A stretch of 24,429 bases of DNA from a virus (taxonomy: Duplodnaviria > Caudoviricetes), in IMG/VR virus record IMGVR_UViG_3300020043_006654, positions 1 through 24,429 of that record; one strand, 5' to 3'. Numbering within the stretch: the first letter of the stretch is position 1; each line of letters begins with the position of its first letter. The translations under genes and the position numbers were made by a program. The notes below the pieces were generated by a model that saw nothing but the letters and a program-made list of their open reading frames with translations, was not told where the DNA came from and did not search any database. This document shows, in pieces, positions 11,669 to 19,875 of this stretch.

Positions 11669-12075
11669 TCCCCCTCCCCACATTTCTTTAACGCCACAAT
11701 CTCAACAGCTCCACCCTTCATGCTCGCCATTGCACACGATAGCGCCGCATTAACACAAGCATCGTATTCTTCACCCGCATCTAAACGCCGACCACATGCA
11801 CTGCCGTAGGTGTCAACGAGAGTTAGAGCTAGTTGTGCTTTCTGAACGGCTTCGATACGGCGGACTTGTTCAATCAGGCCAGCTAGTGAAGGTGCGGCTG
11901 GTTCAGTCTTTGGTGGTTCTTTAGGTTTAGCAACTTCCTCAACAACAGCAGCGAAGGGGGGAAGTGTGGCGGTAGGTTGAGTGGAGGCGGTGGTGCAGCT
12001 TGTTACCAACAGCGCCAGAAAGATAATGACAGCGCCTATGAGGGTGAGAATTAGGAATTTGGTGAAGCGGTTCAT
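11665..12075 (-). CDS. Putative lipoprotein
   Basis: Basic N-terminus, hydrophobic stretch, LVTS-C lipobox, then a Thr/Pro linker. Confidence 0.7.
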   Translation of the reverse strand: MNRFTKFLILTLIGAVIIFLALLVTSCTTASTQPTATLPPFAAVVEEVAKPKEPPKTEPAAPSLAGLIEQVRRIEAVQKAQLALTLVDTYGSACGRRLDAGEEYDACVNAALSCAMASMKGGAVEIVALKKCGEGE

Positions 12076-12983
12076 TTTTCATTCTCCTGTGGTGGTTGTT
12101 TTGAAACCAATAAGTCTTTCAAACGCTTCGCGCGCTTGCTCTGGAACCACTGCATTGCCCAATCCTCTAAGGCGGTGTGATCGATATTGTACCCCATCAA
12201 CCACTCTACCCACTGCGGGTTCAGTTTCCCAGGTTGTCCATTGGTGGCAACCCAAGTAATCCCCGGACTCTTGCGGTTCCCCTCCGCTTGGCCGGCTCTG
12301 GTTGCCTCTGATGCGCGCGGGGTTGGGAACATTTTTACTACCGTTGCCAGTCCATTCCCACTCGTCTTGCTCGCACCTCTGCGGTTGTAATTGCCGTGAA
12401 CTACTGGCGTTGGCCAAAGGTTTTTTGACGCCATTGTTGTTAGGGTCGGTCGCTTCTTTGATGTCGGTGAGCTCTGATTGTAGCCGCCCTCTTGAGCTGT
12501 TGGCGTGGGCAAGACAGAACCATCTCTCTCGATAGTGCGGCGCTCCCATGTCATAAGCGGATAACATTCCCCAGCGACAATCATACCCGACCGCGGCCAG
12601 AGCTCCTGTAATGGTTCCAAGAAAGGGAGTAACTCCTGCGACATTTTCCAAGAAGATGAACTGTGGTCGTATCTCGCGAACGAGCCGTATGATCTCGAAA
12701 AAAAGTCCGCTTCGCTCTCCAGCCAAGCCTTTTTGGCGTCCTGCAACGCTGATATCCTGGCAAGGGAACCCTCCGTAAACAATGTCCACAGGAACTTGCA
12801 GCTCATCGGCATTGAGCGTTTTGATGTCGTCCCATATAGGAGCCACTGGCAAAGATCCGTCTGACATTCTGGAAAGCAAGACAGCTTGAGCGTATCTATC
12901 GTTTTCACAATAGGCGACCGGCCTAACAATGCCCTCCAAGGCGATGGTGAGTCCACCGATTCCGCTAAATAGATCCAAGCCAT
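12072..12983 (-). CDS. Alternative-frame beta chain of the C5 methyltransferase (motif IX and PTP repeats)
   Basis: Stop-free for 303 codons over the alpha gene. Carries LPTP/WPTP/FPTP repeats and LNPQWVEWLMGY (motif IX-like). Its stop is ATGA-coupled to the next gene. True start uncertain. Confidence 0.7.
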   Translation of the reverse strand: MAWIYLAESVDSPSPWRALLGRSPIVKTIDTLKLSCFPECQTDLCQWLLYGTTSKRSMPMSCKFLWTLFTEGSLARISALQDAKKAWLESEADFFSRSYGSFARYDHSSSSWKMSQELLPFLEPLQELWPRSGMIVAGECYPLMTWERRTIERDGSVLPTPTAQEGGYNQSSPTSKKRPTLTTMASKNLWPTPVVHGNYNRRGASKTSGNGLATVVKMFPTPRASEATRAGQAEGNRKSPGITWVATNGQPGKLNPQWVEWLMGYNIDHTALEDWAMQWFQSKRAKRLKDLLVSKQPPQENEK

Positions 12984-12990
12984 TAAGCAC
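12079..12990 (-). CDS. DNA (cytosine-5) methyltransferase, catalytic alpha chain
   Basis: Motif I LDLFSGIGG, IV GGFPCQDIS, VI ENV, VIII RERWF and X LGNAVVP. No recognisable motif IX in this frame. Confidence 0.92.
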   Translation of the reverse strand: MLNGLDLFSGIGGLTIALEGIVRPVAYCENDRYAQAVLLSRMSDGSLPVAPIWDDIKTLNADELQVPVDIVYGGFPCQDISVAGRQKGLAGERSGLFFEIIRLVREIRPQFIFLENVAGVTPFLGTITGALAAVGYDCRWGMLSAYDMGAPHYRERWFCLAHANSSRGRLQSELTDIKEATDPNNNGVKKPLANASSSRQLQPQRCEQDEWEWTGNGSKNVPNPARIRGNQSRPSGGEPQESGDYLGCHQWTTWETEPAVGRVVDGVQYRSHRLRGLGNAVVPEQAREAFERLIGFKTTTTGE

Positions 12991-13420: not shown

Positions 13421-14641
13421 TTAAGATTCATAAACAATTTCATATTTTGACGTGTCGATCCTCATCGTAGCGAGACGAACCAACTCCGCATTATTAACGT
13501 CCGTTGGCACCACGCCAAACATCTCTTTAAACTCTTGCTGCGTATTCGGGACGACAAGAAACGTTTCTTGTTCTACCTTAGTGTCCCACCAAGTTAACTT
13601 TAACAAACGAGTTGCACCGATTTCAGGCAACTGCAATTCCCACAATTGAACCGGTTTGGATGATCCGCGTGTTGATGGCGTCTCACTAATCAATTTACCT
13701 TTTAGGTCTTTGATGAATTTCCCGTAGCCCTCTTTACGAATCACCGCCATGCGTATTTGTGCATTGGATTCTTTTAAGAGGTCTTTTGCGGCGACTGGCT
13801 CAAGGATGTATTTTTCTGGCACTATGACGCCATGTAGAACGTATAAAGAGTATCCATCTGAGTAGGCCATGGCGGGACCTTTTTCATTGTGTAAGCGGCC
13901 AAGATTGTCGATTTTCAAAACTGTTGGCCGGTCTGAAACTAAAACAATGTTTTCATAAGGAAACCACCAGTGGCATTGCGCGGCCTCCTCAATCCACATG
14001 TCTAATTTATTAATATCTGTTTCACTATATTTTACTCCAATATCGTAACAAAATTTATAGTAGACTTGCCAAGCACACCAATGGTTGCCGCCAAAATAAT
14101 TTTCTAATTGCCGTCCAAGGTTTGACCGAAGGTTTGACCCAAGGTTTAACCGAAGGTTTGACTCAAGGTTTGACCCAAGGTTTGACCCAAGGTTTGACCG
14201 AAGGTTTGACTCAAGGTTTAACCGAAGGTTTGACTCAAGGTTTGACCCAAGGTTTGACTCAAGGTTTGACCAAAGGTTTGACTCAAGGTTTGACCAAAGG
14301 TTTGACCCAAGGTTTAACCGAAGGTTTGACCCAAGGTTTAACCGAAGGTTTGACTCAAGGTTTGACCCAAGGTTTGACCGAAGGTTGTTTTTTATTGTGC
14401 CCGGTGAAGCCTGATTTTCTAATCGACTCAACAAACCATATGCTAATATGCACGTCATCGGACTTGAGAAAAACCATACTTTGGGGGATGGTTTATTAAT
14501 GGCCGCGTAAAATTTACAGATAATGTTAGTGGCTTTCTCTCTATCAATCCTCTCTGTGGATCTCCCAACAGCCAACCACTTTTCAAGCGTGGCTTGCATA
14601 TCTAGTTCTTGTTCTGGTGTAAGTTTTTTTATTTTCTTCAT
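13421..14641 (-). CDS. DUF6745-like protein with internal (x-S/L-N-L)22 repeat
   Basis: WWFPYENIVLVSDRP....DNLGRLHNEKGPAMAYSDGYSLYVLHGV signature and N-terminal KLTPEQ...W...G.ST. Confidence 0.75.
   Translation of the reverse strand: MKKIKKLTPEQELDMQATLEKWLAVGRSTERIDREKATNIICKFYAAINKPSPKVWFFSSPMTCILAYGLLSRLENQASPGTIKNNLRSNLGSNLESNLRLNLGSNLRLNLGSNLWSNLESNLWSNLESNLGSNLESNLRLNLESNLRSNLGSNLGSNLESNLRLNLGSNLRSNLGRQLENYFGGNHWCAWQVYYKFCYDIGVKYSETDINKLDMWIEEAAQCHWWFPYENIVLVSDRPTVLKIDNLGRLHNEKGPAMAYSDGYSLYVLHGVIVPEKYILEPVAAKDLLKESNAQIRMAVIRKEGYGKFIKDLKGKLISETPSTRGSSKPVQLWELQLPEIGATRLLKLTWWDTKVEQETFLVVPNTQQEFKEMFGVVPTDVNNAELVRLATMRIDTSKYEIVYES
14117..14386. repeat. Coding tandem repeat, 22 full 12-bp units AAGGTTT(G/A)AC(C/T)(C/G/A) plus a partial unit
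   Basis: Units counted directly from 14117 to 14380, with five unit variants. Confidence 0.98.
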
Positions 14642-17467: not shown

Positions 17468-17998
17468 TTAAAATGGTTGTTTCTCCTCTCCGGTTTCAAT
17501 TAATTGGATGATTTTTTCTTTTACCGTTGCCGGCATTCCTTTAATCGCCGAATCTTCAAGCCCTTTTTTGTAGATGTGGGGTCGGTTGATCACATCCTGA
17601 TCGCTGGTTTTCAATAACCGCTTGTCTGTGTTTTCACCGAACCACGCTGGGTAATTCTGGAAACGTGCGGCGTTAAAACATTGACAGCGGTAGGCGAACA
17701 CAACTCCCTTTTTGTCGATTGCCTGCACCCGTCCATCCCCACCACACCAAGAACATGGCAACCGCACTTCGTTATTGAGTCGTTGTGAGGCTCTAACTTG
17801 ACGGATAACCTCTGAGGCTCTTGCGGGTGTCGGAAAGCGCTCATCTTCTCTGGCGATACGATTAAACGCTGTCGCTACCGTTGAAATATCTTCTGTTTGG
17901 AAAAATTTATAATAGCGGCGTGCCTTCCCGTCTTTATTCGGCACATGGAAACAATCGAAAAGTATTTCTAAAGCATCGTTGAATTGATCAATAGTCAT
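17468..17998 (-). CDS. Replication accessory / helicase-loader-like protein with Zn finger
   Basis: Follows the initiator. Helical N-domain ending RFPTPA, then CSWCGGDG...CQC. Confidence 0.55.
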   Translation of the reverse strand: MTIDQFNDALEILFDCFHVPNKDGKARRYYKFFQTEDISTVATAFNRIAREDERFPTPARASEVIRQVRASQRLNNEVRLPCSWCGGDGRVQAIDKKGVVFAYRCQCFNAARFQNYPAWFGENTDKRLLKTSDQDVINRPHIYKKGLEDSAIKGMPATVKEKIIQLIETGEEKQPF

Positions 17999-18737
17999 AT
18001 TCTTCCTCTTGAATTAAGGTCTTAGCTCGCGCCTTCCAGTTTTGTGCTTGTGATGGAACTTCCTTTTCCCACATGCGATTGCTGAGGAATTTCGTCAAGT
18101 TAACTACAAACTGCCCGTTGTCTTTGGTCCATAACTCGCTGTTTTTCCAATTCTCTATCCCACAAAGAATGGCGGTGATTAGTTCCTCTGTGGGTTTTAA
18201 GAGTTTTAACTGTCCCCTAGCAGAAGCTGAATAGAGTCTCCCTTGTGGTGGGTAGGCATTTTCTATTTGCCGGAACCAGATATTAAACTGCGCGTCTCTT
18301 ACAGTACGTAGTACTGTATTCTTCTTCTTTCTTTCTTTGTATTCTTCTATTGTCGTTGATTGTTCGTTGTTGGTTCGTTGATCGTTCATTGAACCGTCCG
18401 TTGATTTGCTCGTTACTTTATTTTCTACATCCTGCCATTTGTTATAATTTACAATAGTATAGATGGTAAATCTGTTCGTTGATTTGCTCGTTACTTCGTC
18501 CGTTGATTTTAGTCTTAACAATAGAGTGCATAGAGATTGTTCTGATATTCCTAAATATTCCGATAAGTTGCGCCTAGATGAAACAAAGCTTCCGCGTGGG
18601 ATGATTTGCCCCTCAAAACGCTGATCAGCCCAATTAGCCCGCATTATCAGTTTAATGAAACAACCAACCATTTTACTATTATGAAACCAATCCCATTTCT
18701 CGATATCGCGGAAAATCTTTACAAATCCCTCGCCCAA
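17988..18737 (-). CDS. Phage replication initiator (lambda O / DnaD-like)
   Basis: GFVKIFRDIEKWDWF...LIMRANW...IPRGSFVSSRRNLS...TIYTIVNYNKWQ N-domain and AYP...FL..RMWE C-domain. Start moved to TTG 18737, after GGAGG. Confidence 0.85.
   Translation of the reverse strand: MGEGFVKIFRDIEKWDWFHNSKMVGCFIKLIMRANWADQRFEGQIIPRGSFVSSRRNLSEYLGISEQSLCTLLLRLKSTDEVTSKSTNRFTIYTIVNYNKWQDVENKVTSKSTDGSMNDQRTNNEQSTTIEEYKERKKKNTVLRTVRDAQFNIWFRQIENAYPPQGRLYSASARGQLKLLKPTEELITAILCGIENWKNSELWTKDNGQFVVNLTKFLSNRMWEKEVPSQAQNWKARAKTLIQEEEYDY
18300..18509. other. Putative replication origin (iterons) inside the initiator gene
   Basis: CGTTGATTTGCTCGTTACTT at 18399-18418 and 18477-18496. CGTTGAT cores also at 18354, 18376 and 18501. 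Adjacent pyrimidine tract 18319-18338 and inverted repeat TACAGTAC-gta-GTACTGTA at 18300-18318. Confidence 0.7.
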
Positions 18738-18748
18738 GACGCCTCCGG

Positions 18749-18876
18749 TATGATGCAAAACGGGAGGAAGTCGAAACTCCCTCCCGCAGCTATCGGCAGT
18801 ACGATGCAGCACAAAGGCTGGCTGCCGATATCGATCTGAAAATATTTTGAAAGCACTGCATCGTGATTGCATCATA
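18749..18876 (-). ncRNA. Structured cis-regulatory RNA element in the initiator leader
   Basis: Four complementary arm pairs of 9-12 bp, a UUCG loop, and mismatches that become G-U pairs only on the minus strand. Confidence 0.65.
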
Positions 18877-18889
18877 AATCCCAATTAAT

Positions 18890-19102
18890 TTAAGTCAAGA
18901 TATTCCAGAGAATGCCAAACATATATTTTATCGTTCGGGTTCTCGACAGTTGTTTTCTTAGAGCGATTCTAAAAGCCTCCTCAACCGATTCAGTCCCAAG
19001 CTGTTTTATGAAGTGCTCAATCGTAATATAGAGATCAGGATCAACAGGCTGTTCTCCAGGGAAGTGAGAATCAATTAGGTTTAAAATATATTCTTTACTC
19101 AT
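18890..19102 (-). CDS. Small protein with DnaD-like C-terminal motif
   Basis: LG...V.EAF.IA......KYMFGILWN. Start moved to 19102, overlapping the upstream stop. Confidence 0.5.
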   Translation of the reverse strand: MSKEYILNLIDSHFPGEQPVDPDLYITIEHFIKQLGTESVEEAFRIALRKQLSRTRTIKYMFGILWNILT

Positions 19103-19268
19103 TTTTCTTAATTGATTCCTTGATTGCCCACTGTTCAATAGTTTTAGGTTTCGATTTCTTTAAGTCGTCGGCAATGACTGAATCGGTCGCGCTAGCAATC
19201 CAACGGCAACCATAAAGAACCGCTGGCGTACCGACTAGGATAGCGATTAGGTAAACTTTCCAGTCCAT
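19095..19268 (-). CDS. Small membrane-anchored protein, 57 aa (not in ORF track)
   Basis: AGGAG RBS; MDWKVYLIAILVGTPAVLYGC...KKNE*. Confidence 0.65.
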   Translation of the reverse strand: MDWKVYLIAILVGTPAVLYGCRWIASATDSVIADDLKKSKPKTIEQWAIKESIKKNE

Positions 19269-19269
19269 A

Positions 19270-19521
19270 TTAGCTCCTGATTTCTTTTAGGACCAATTCA
19301 AATTCGCCGTATTCGTGTTGGATGATATTCATGTAGTAAAGTGCAACGGTCTGTGATTCGAAAATAGCGTTATCAATAGGCGTCGAAAGGTCTTCATCTG
19401 TTTTAAAAAACACCCCCCATTTCTTAGGGTTGCGATCCTCAACCATTTTTACTATGCGTAGGATTCTGTCGGCGTTGAGCTTGTTAAGGTCTTTTTTAAT
19501 TTCCTCATAGTCTCTACCCAT
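19270..19521 (-). CDS. Hypothetical protein, first gene of the leftward operon
   Basis: GGAGGT RBS, directly downstream of a consensus promoter. Confidence 0.75.
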   Translation of the reverse strand: MGRDYEEIKKDLNKLNADRILRIVKMVEDRNPKKWGVFFKTDEDLSTPIDNAIFESQTVALYYMNIIQHEYGEFELVLKEIRS

Positions 19522-19553: not shown

Positions 19554-19582
19554 ATTATATATATCATGATATACGTTGTCAA
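19554..19582 (-). promoter_or_regulatory. Leftward (early) sigma70 promoter, perfect consensus
   Basis: TTGACA (19582-19577), 17-bp spacer, TATAAT (19559-19554). Confidence 0.9.
19560..19573. promoter_or_regulatory. Perfect 14-bp palindrome (putative operator) in the promoter spacer
   Basis: TATATCATGATATA. Confidence 0.6.
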
Positions 19583-19591
19583 TAAAATAAA

Positions 19592-19619
19592 TTGACATAT
19601 ATTATGCCTGATATATATT
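19592..19619 (+). promoter_or_regulatory. Rightward sigma70 promoter
   Basis: TTGACA (19592-19597), 16-bp spacer, TATATT (19614-19619). Confidence 0.7.
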
Positions 19620-19859: not shown

Positions 19860-19875
19860 CGTTCCACGTGAAACA
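19860..19875. promoter_or_regulatory. parS: parS-like centromere site
   Basis: CGTTCCACGTGAAACA, a 15/16 match to the chromosomal parS consensus TGTTNCACGTGAAACA, in a 37-bp intergenic gap. Confidence 0.75.

Follow-up and report, generated by a model that had tools for sequence, protein, structure and literature searches.

A conserved, structured leader RNA before a DnaD-like phage replication initiator, read tentatively as a ribosome-coupled transcription attenuator

In the pyrBI attenuator of E. coli and the stop-proximal tR2 constructs, a short upstream frame lets a coupled ribosome block a terminator hairpin. In the tR2 work, as the accessible part of PMC4824070 describes it, a stop codon moved to 5 bp before tR2 in E. 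coli lowered termination from ~90% to <10%, and the effect was lost once translation was uncoupled. In the IncI-alpha ColIb-P9 and IncB plasmids, a leader frame and a pseudoknot lie upstream of the initiator. The leader stops in the rep initiation region. The pseudoknot forms beside the rep SD and turns on translation unless an antisense RNA, Inc RNA, prevents it (PMC4705826, in the text available). In the IncI2 repR-repA arrangement with PcnR, repR has its own SD and overlaps the repA start, which provides translational coupling (available text of PMC8053102). Mycobacterial short-ORF attenuators are leaderless frames at the start of operon messages; according to the accessible portion of 10.1101/834739, they sense cysteine by codon tracts and act via RNA structure on a downstream ribosome site. 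Finally, put of phage HK022 is an RNA of ~70 bases, folded into two stem-loops, with which an early phage transcript begins; it binds RNA polymerase and is connected with the control of termination (PMC9378689, in the excerpt available).

Here we describe an RNA element of a tailed phage (Caudoviricetes). The window, i.e., the whole stretch of DNA that was analysed, comprises the 24,429 nucleotides of the 24.4-kb virus record IMGVR_UViG_3300020043_006654, which carries terminase, ERF and RHH genes. The element precedes the gene of a DnaD-like replication initiator, and the features of the locus are collected in Table 1. To our knowledge, the dosing of DnaD-type phage initiators is largely unknown for uncultured phages. 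The TTG at 18737 had been taken as the initiator start in a previous reading of the same DNA (hereafter, the first-pass annotation), and the homologues agreed with this choice: 25 aligned sequences of the 29 found start there, and residue 3 of the protein matches position 3 of the phrog_2514 profile. Near-identical DNA was present in sludge, activated sludge and bioreactor runs, with 7 of 21 rows from three studies containing at least half the words.

Table 1. Positions of the leader features and the neighbouring genes in the window. L003 denotes a distant syntenic phage, for which positions on its own contig are given where available.
Feature	Position	Strand	Remarks
Promoter P1, TTGACA-17-TATAAT	19554-19582	minus	12/12 consensus; equivalent at L003:2610-2638
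Promoter P2, TTGACT-16-TATGAT	18871-18898	minus	10/12 consensus; L003:2837-2864
Outer-stem 5' arm	18867-18876 (partner 18749-18758)	minus	Upstream of predicted +1; not conserved
Predicted +1	18864	minus	First base of arm A; invariant CA, with A 7 bases after the -10 box
Leader frame	18790-18861	minus	AUG at +4, 23 codons, stop at +73 to +75
Arm A (S1, 5' side)	18853-18864	minus	Carries leader start codon; 18864-18853 pairs with 18812-18801
Loop L1	18831-18852	minus	A/U-rich; 22 bases in window and L003; two sister-strain changes inside
Arm B (S2, 5' side)	18822-18830	minus	18830-18822 pairs with 18799-18791
Loop L2	18813-18821	minus	9 bases in window and L003; CCAGCCUU invariant
Arm A' (S1, 3' side)	18801-18812	minus	4 double-sided changes relative to L003
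Arm B' (S2, 3' side)	18791-18799	minus	Last bases belong to leader stop codon; 3 double-sided changes relative to L003
Hairpin H	18760-18787	minus	12 bp, UUCG loop; 18787-18776 pairs with 18771-18760; 5 double-sided changes relative to L003
U-run	18753-18760	minus	4 U, GC, then AU; 5/8 U; conservation ends at 18755
Initiator RBS, GGAGG	18742-18746	minus	Also in L003
DnaD-like replication initiator	17988-18737	minus	249 aa, TTG start; phrog_2514 E 2.9e-21
Next operon gene, helicase-loader-like	17468-17998	minus	60% identical in L003; G39P_N is a lead only

The first-pass annotation had proposed a multi-stem RNA on the minus strand from 18876 to 18749, and all four helices were found where it had placed them. 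These were S1 (A with A', 12 bp), S2 (B with B', 9 bp), the UUCG hairpin H, with one G-U base pair among its twelve, and an outer stem of 10 bp. The strand order A-B-A'-B' corresponds to an H-type pseudoknot. Its geometry is unusual, as the junction between A' and B' measures 1 or 0 bases in the two phages and the 5' end of the RNA falls at the helix junction. Two disjoint stems of at least 11 bp together with a third of at least 9 bp occurred in 1 of 5000 dinucleotide shuffles of the window sequence and in none of 5000 for L003, and a descriptor of the stems found the architecture once in the window. As had been claimed, the mismatches are G-U on the minus strand, which applies to all four non-Watson-Crick pairs. 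The folding z-score ranged from -3.5 to -3.9 for the sense strand and was -3.7 for the opposite strand; therefore, the z-score alone leaves the strand undecided, and the choice of strand was based on the G-U pairs and the gene context. Additionally, the 9-bp helix between the outer arm and A', needed for the suggested exchange of partners between the outer arm and arm A, is possible in the window.

The expectation that a relative would keep the leader was borne out by L003 (IMGVR_UViG_3300010356_002437), one distant syntenic phage with an initiator 45% identical to that of the window. L003 retains S1, S2 and H. From the 33 pairs of these stems, 17 were identical, 12 were changed on both sides, two showed compatible one-sided changes, and two were broken. 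The alignment of S1 is gap-free, and its four double changes all preserve pairing, whereas the 5' arm of S2 aligns after a 2-base slip and H was aligned by structure. A formal covariation statistic is absent due to the number of full-length members, which is just two. The conserved stretch runs from the -35 box to the UUUUGC behind H.

Sister strains were represented by Logan contigs from 8 of the 21 listed runs and showed six changes within 18749-18864. Three of them fall in S1 or H and keep pairing, including one in arm A' that turns a G-U pair into G-C; two lie in L1 and one in a spacer. One contig, from run X17, matches from 18755 upward and then continues into another ribosome site and start codon, which indicates that the module ends at the U-run and can precede a different gene. 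The different gene behind the element in this contig suggests a swap of the initiator module. The SD sits 10-13 bases behind H in all three contexts (window, L003 and X17).

The outer stem was the part of the proposed structure that stood in the window and did not extend to its relatives. It is missing in L003, the X17 variant lacks most of its 3' arm, and its 5' arm, upstream of the predicted +1, coincides with the -10 box of P2. For these reasons, it was rejected as a part of the conserved element; it could form on transcripts from P1 (19582) only, and in this lineage only.

No family of Rfam 15, riboswitches, ribozymes, c4 and RydC included, matched the element in the window (E up to 1) or in L003 (E up to 10), in agreement with the earlier failure to assign the RNA to a known family. 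Two DNA patterns submitted against IMG/VR gave 96 and 27 loci, and the L003 contig was the only one with the stems among the matches listed. Protein-guided scans with the initiator, the downstream gene, the exonuclease, the initiator C-terminal domain and RHH returned the L003 contig or unrelated loci, and the contig returned by a single metagenome scan begins after the leader. In GTDB, nothing was found by protein, and 50 loci were found by pattern; the searches for members yielded one distant phage only, L003. A covariance model of S1 only, which took in 18 of the 36 new loci from one protein-guided scan, recovered just its two training sequences from 79 sources (374,261 bases); the next three hits (11-16 bits) were without the stems. 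The stem descriptor, applied to 357,571 bases, returned, besides the window and the L003 contig, a single GC-rich match that lacked both promoter and U-run. No blastn match to phage and plasmid records extended over 19% of the query. The element was not found in supplementary files 3-6 of PMC10690425, the searched part of a set of ten thousand candidate viral RNAs. Only two full members are known, those of the window and L003. The results show that the stems are real and that the leader RNA is structured, conserved and uncatalogued.

Three features were absent from the first-pass annotation, namely the promoter P2, the U-run that makes H terminator-like, and a leaderless frame. Promoter matches are frequent by chance in this A/T-rich region (9 found against 7.7 expected); hence, the support for P2 comes from its conservation at the same offset. 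The 16-base spacer and the CA start are common to both phages despite unrelated upstream genes. We infer from these matches that transcription probably starts at 18864, and P1 transcripts would likewise run into the element. The free energy of H was -21 kcal/mol in the window and about -23 to -24 kcal/mol in L003, and in both phages its 12 bp are followed by UUUUGC. A terminator scan listed H in L003 and scored it just under the rule in the window. H and the U-run look like an intrinsic terminator between the promoter and the first gene, and the shortness of the U-run is the weak point of this reading.

Other promoter-like matches were seen in the region. A weak one (9/12) on the plus strand at 18847-18875 faces away from the element, overlaps the -10 box of P2 and may be a coincidence. 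At 19554-19619, near-consensus promoters stand back-to-back on both strands of an A/T-rich stretch; L003 has the same arrangement, and there the divergent side carries RNA genes and a gene for 175 aa. One RNA run (X20) gave contigs at 18999-19300 only, with a depth of 2, and was uninformative on expression.

The leader frame of L003 has AUG at +1 and GUG at +4 and stops in the same place as that of the window, the frames having 23-24 codons. In both phages, the start codon lies inside arm A, and the stop is codon 25 counted from +1, 2 and 5 bases before H, respectively. In the window, the stop occupies 18792-18790, 53 bases upstream of the initiator start. The frame was spotted after the fact; a start at +1 to +4 with a stop at most 15 bases from H has a chance of 0.030 and 0.024 per sequence, and with the identical columns fixed, the frame arose by chance in ~0.2 of trials. 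The sister-strain changes within the frame were synonymous in 3 of 3 cases, against 21 of 69 possible transitions, and one of the three is also accounted for by pairing. The columns identical between the window and L003 number 13 at each of the three codon positions, which gives no signal at the level of the peptide, and the two peptides have 7 of 24 positions in common. Judged from these alignments, it is the position of the leader frame, and not its product, that is conserved between the two phages. A conserved regulatory-codon tract, as used by amino-acid-sensing attenuators, was found in neither leader peptide.

The CAGC of L2 is able to pair with arm A' and is thus a decoy that mimics arm A. 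For the 76-base RNA, the S1 fold and the alternative of S2 with an L2:A' hairpin had energies of -20.8 against -17.2 kcal/mol in the window and -23.3 against -25.6 kcal/mol in L003. The S1 fold hides the leader start codon, and the S2 fold leaves it free or weakly paired. The folding programs used score no pseudoknots, and on these models, the pseudoknot may be either stable in itself or a passing stage of refolding. Most invariant bases are accounted for by the start codon and the three-way pairing of A, A' and L2. The invariant C44, C49, U50 and U51 of L2 are left over, which we count against the attenuator reading given below. H was complete in all modelled folds except with a ribosome modelled at the leader stop. 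Two further pairings were tried and rejected: a helix of B' and the 5' arm of H, which would make a classical antiterminator, was too weak (-4 to -7 kcal/mol against -21 to -23 for H), and an L2-S1 base-triple register, with three canonical triples by eye, was within chance.

Based on these data, we tentatively favor a ribosome-coupled transcription attenuator that gates the replication operon, rather than a switch on the initiator ribosome site. This reading builds on the stems and their covariation, on the matches to consensus promoters and terminators and on the conserved place of the frame, as described above; the presumed start site, termination, translation of the frame and direction of control are what it would add. 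P2 would start the RNA at arm A, and H with the U-run would stop most P2 and P1 transcripts ~20 bases short of the initiator start. If a ribosome loaded on the leaderless start and kept pace with RNA polymerase, it would reach the leader stop and cover the base of H. With H blocked in this way, transcription would continue into the initiator, helicase-loader-like and recombination genes. S1, by hiding the leader start, would set how often a ribosome loads, and the S2 + L2:A' decoy fold, within ~4 kcal/mol, would free it. Leader translation would thus be switched or timed by the A-B-A'-B' region, the pseudoknot being one of its states or an intermediate, and the operon output would follow the host translation capacity. 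The distances of 2 and 5 bases between the leader stop and H place a ribosome within range of the hairpin, the range being taken from the tR2 data in the accessible part of PMC4824070. A pause would be needed for leaderless loading before S1 folds or the polymerase reaches the U-run, which, like the sample of two phages, is a weak point of the attenuator reading.

Alternatively, H terminates and read-through is set by a binder of the pseudoknot, whether the initiator, another phage protein, RNA polymerase or a small molecule, the frame being incidental. We consider this unlikely. The equal lengths of L1 (22) and L2 (9) in both phages point to it, L2 is almost invariant beside an invariant S1 core, as expected of a binding surface, and by geometric reasoning L2 would cross the S1 major groove. 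There is also a precedent in putL, a promoter-proximal phage RNA that suppresses termination (PMC9378689, in the excerpt available). However, put is described there as two stem-loops, the three-way pairing and the start codon already cover most invariant positions, no riboswitch family matched, and the 16 proteins scanned included no antiterminator gene.

It is rather unlikely that the stretch from P2 to H is a stand-alone gene of ~110 bases, with the initiator expressed by leaky read-through. Its product would be a trans-acting small RNA with a protected 5' end and L2 as the seed, or the mRNA of a 23-residue peptide. The promoter and terminator of its own fit this explanation, as do the X17 context, in which the module stands before a different gene, and the uniformly synonymous strain changes in the leader frame. 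On the other hand, no shared target of the L2 seed was found, and L175, which covers 11.7 of the 21.8 kb of the related phage's contig, is without an exact 8-base match besides the element. Moreover, peptide conservation is no greater than the RNA imposes, and the constant spacing of the SD behind H in three contexts is as for a leader.

It seems quite unlikely that translation is switched by the 3' arm of H or by L2 covering the initiator ribosome site. The 3' arm of H had been noted as an anti-SD, and this held in part: its pairing with the SD region amounts to -8.6 kcal/mol in the window and -8.1 in L003, but the exact 7-base arm was not kept in L003. L2 pairs with the same region at -7.7 kcal/mol in the window and -4.7 in L003, and the TTG start and 4-base spacing of the initiator are weak. 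Nevertheless, H itself amounts to -21 to -23 kcal/mol and has no conserved competitor among the helices, conservation does not extend to the outer stem, and the U-run and the leader frame would be left unexplained.

A self-cleaving ribozyme, HDV-like or of another class, is highly improbable: the succession of a pseudoknot, a UUCG hairpin and an invariant loop speaks for it, but no ribozyme family appeared at the E limits given above, and the strand order of the HDV ribozyme would require the non-conserved outer arms. It is scarcely credible, and largely refuted, that the initiator has an N-terminal extension beginning at 18884 or 18875 and that the stems arose by chance, as the first-pass annotation had assumed: both the window and L003 have an open, in-register frame and GAGGAG precedes an ATG in L003, but chance alone leaves such a frame open in 0.31 and 0.55 of trials, homologues begin at 18737, a stop precedes the downstream start in the X17 context, and strain changes in this frame were synonymous in 0 of 6 cases against 16 of 21 in two neighbouring genes (p = 0.0016), which shows that the region is not ordinary coding sequence.

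Several side observations concern the initiator and the rest of the phage. Iteron-like direct repeats at 18353-18511, inside the initiator gene, have units of 11 and of 15-23 bases and are a likely replication origin. In P0003, the C-terminal domain of the initiator is joined to an unrelated N-terminal domain. A stand-alone 70-aa ORF at 18890-19102 (minus), just upstream of the leader, resembles the DnaD/DnaB_2 domain by weak matches (PF07261 E 0.0099 and phrog_186 E 0.0035) and was not found in L003. A YrlA-like RNA at L003:1838-1905 (minus) scored 34.7 bits, below the gathering score of 69, and has no counterpart in the window; similarly, L175:1898-1971 (minus) carries a tRNA-Met, and the corresponding region of the window has no tRNA. 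At 12072-12990 (minus), two same-strand open frames of 303 codons each overlap fully, and one of them has motifs of what we take to be a cytosine DNA methyltransferase. At 13421-14641 (minus), a 406-aa ORF contains an internal 8-residue tandem repeat of the NL(E/G/R/W)S(N/L) type.

A parS core was matched exactly at 19861-19874 of the window and at L175:1999-2012, in the same intergenic place, with 0.01 expected by chance; the chromosomal consensus used for comparison is that of PMC7022226, in its accessible part. The core lies 1 kb from the element in both phages and, on the basis of this match, may serve to bring host ParB to the phage DNA. A plasmid-like state that calls for copy control is plausible in view of this core. 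We rate as unlikely a copy-number control that dispenses with antisense RNA, in which a bistable pseudoknot at first conceals the leaderless start codon with which the message opens and later uncovers it. If it is true, initiator transcription would be a race between ribosome loading and RNA folding, and the nearby parS would suggest a plasmid-like prophage whose replication is metered by host translation capacity.

If the attenuator reading is true, a single control on phage replication would combine an intrinsic terminator with leaderless translation and with a pseudoknot or bistable fold, and phage replication would be tied to host protein synthesis. The literature searched held no description of such a combination of leaderless frame, pseudoknot or bistable fold and terminator on phage replication. 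The mechanism aside, this phage RNA motif is uncatalogued, covaries and contains an unusual pseudoknot, and with ~110 bases, it is amenable to ordinary reporters.

Compared with the described systems, the locus resembles IncI-alpha ColIb-P9 and IncB in having a leader frame and a pseudoknot upstream of an initiator, which in the window has a non-AUG start. The first-pass annotation had accordingly placed an IncB/IncI-type pseudoknot on the initiator ribosome site, a claim that was not supported. S2 ends at 18791, 44 bases before the SD, with the terminator-like hairpin between them, and the leader stop lies upstream of H. In addition, the L2-SD pairing is weak and differs between the two phages, and the promoter matches of the window and L003 include no antisense promoter common to both. 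Neither an antisense RNA nor coupling of the IncI/IncB type was found, and the element falls outside the system that the available text of PMC4705826 describes. With IncI2 repR-repA, it has one feature in common (PMC8053102, in the text available), and the stop 53 bases upstream contrasts with the overlap of repR and the repA start. As in the mycobacterial attenuators of 10.1101/834739, as far as its accessible portion describes them, a leaderless frame at the start of an operon message acts, in our reading, via RNA structure, but there is no codon tract here. HK022 put is likewise a folded RNA with which an early phage transcript begins, and it too is linked to the control of termination (excerpt of PMC9378689); it differs from the A-B-A'-B' pseudoknot with a terminator-like hairpin directly behind, which is not a pair of stem-loops. 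Finally, pyrBI and the tR2 constructs share with the proposed attenuator a short upstream frame by which a coupled ribosome would block the terminator hairpin (PMC4824070, in its accessible part), whereas the frame here is leaderless and stops just before the hairpin instead of containing it, its start is hidden in a pseudoknot or bistable fold, and the gene downstream is a phage replication initiator.
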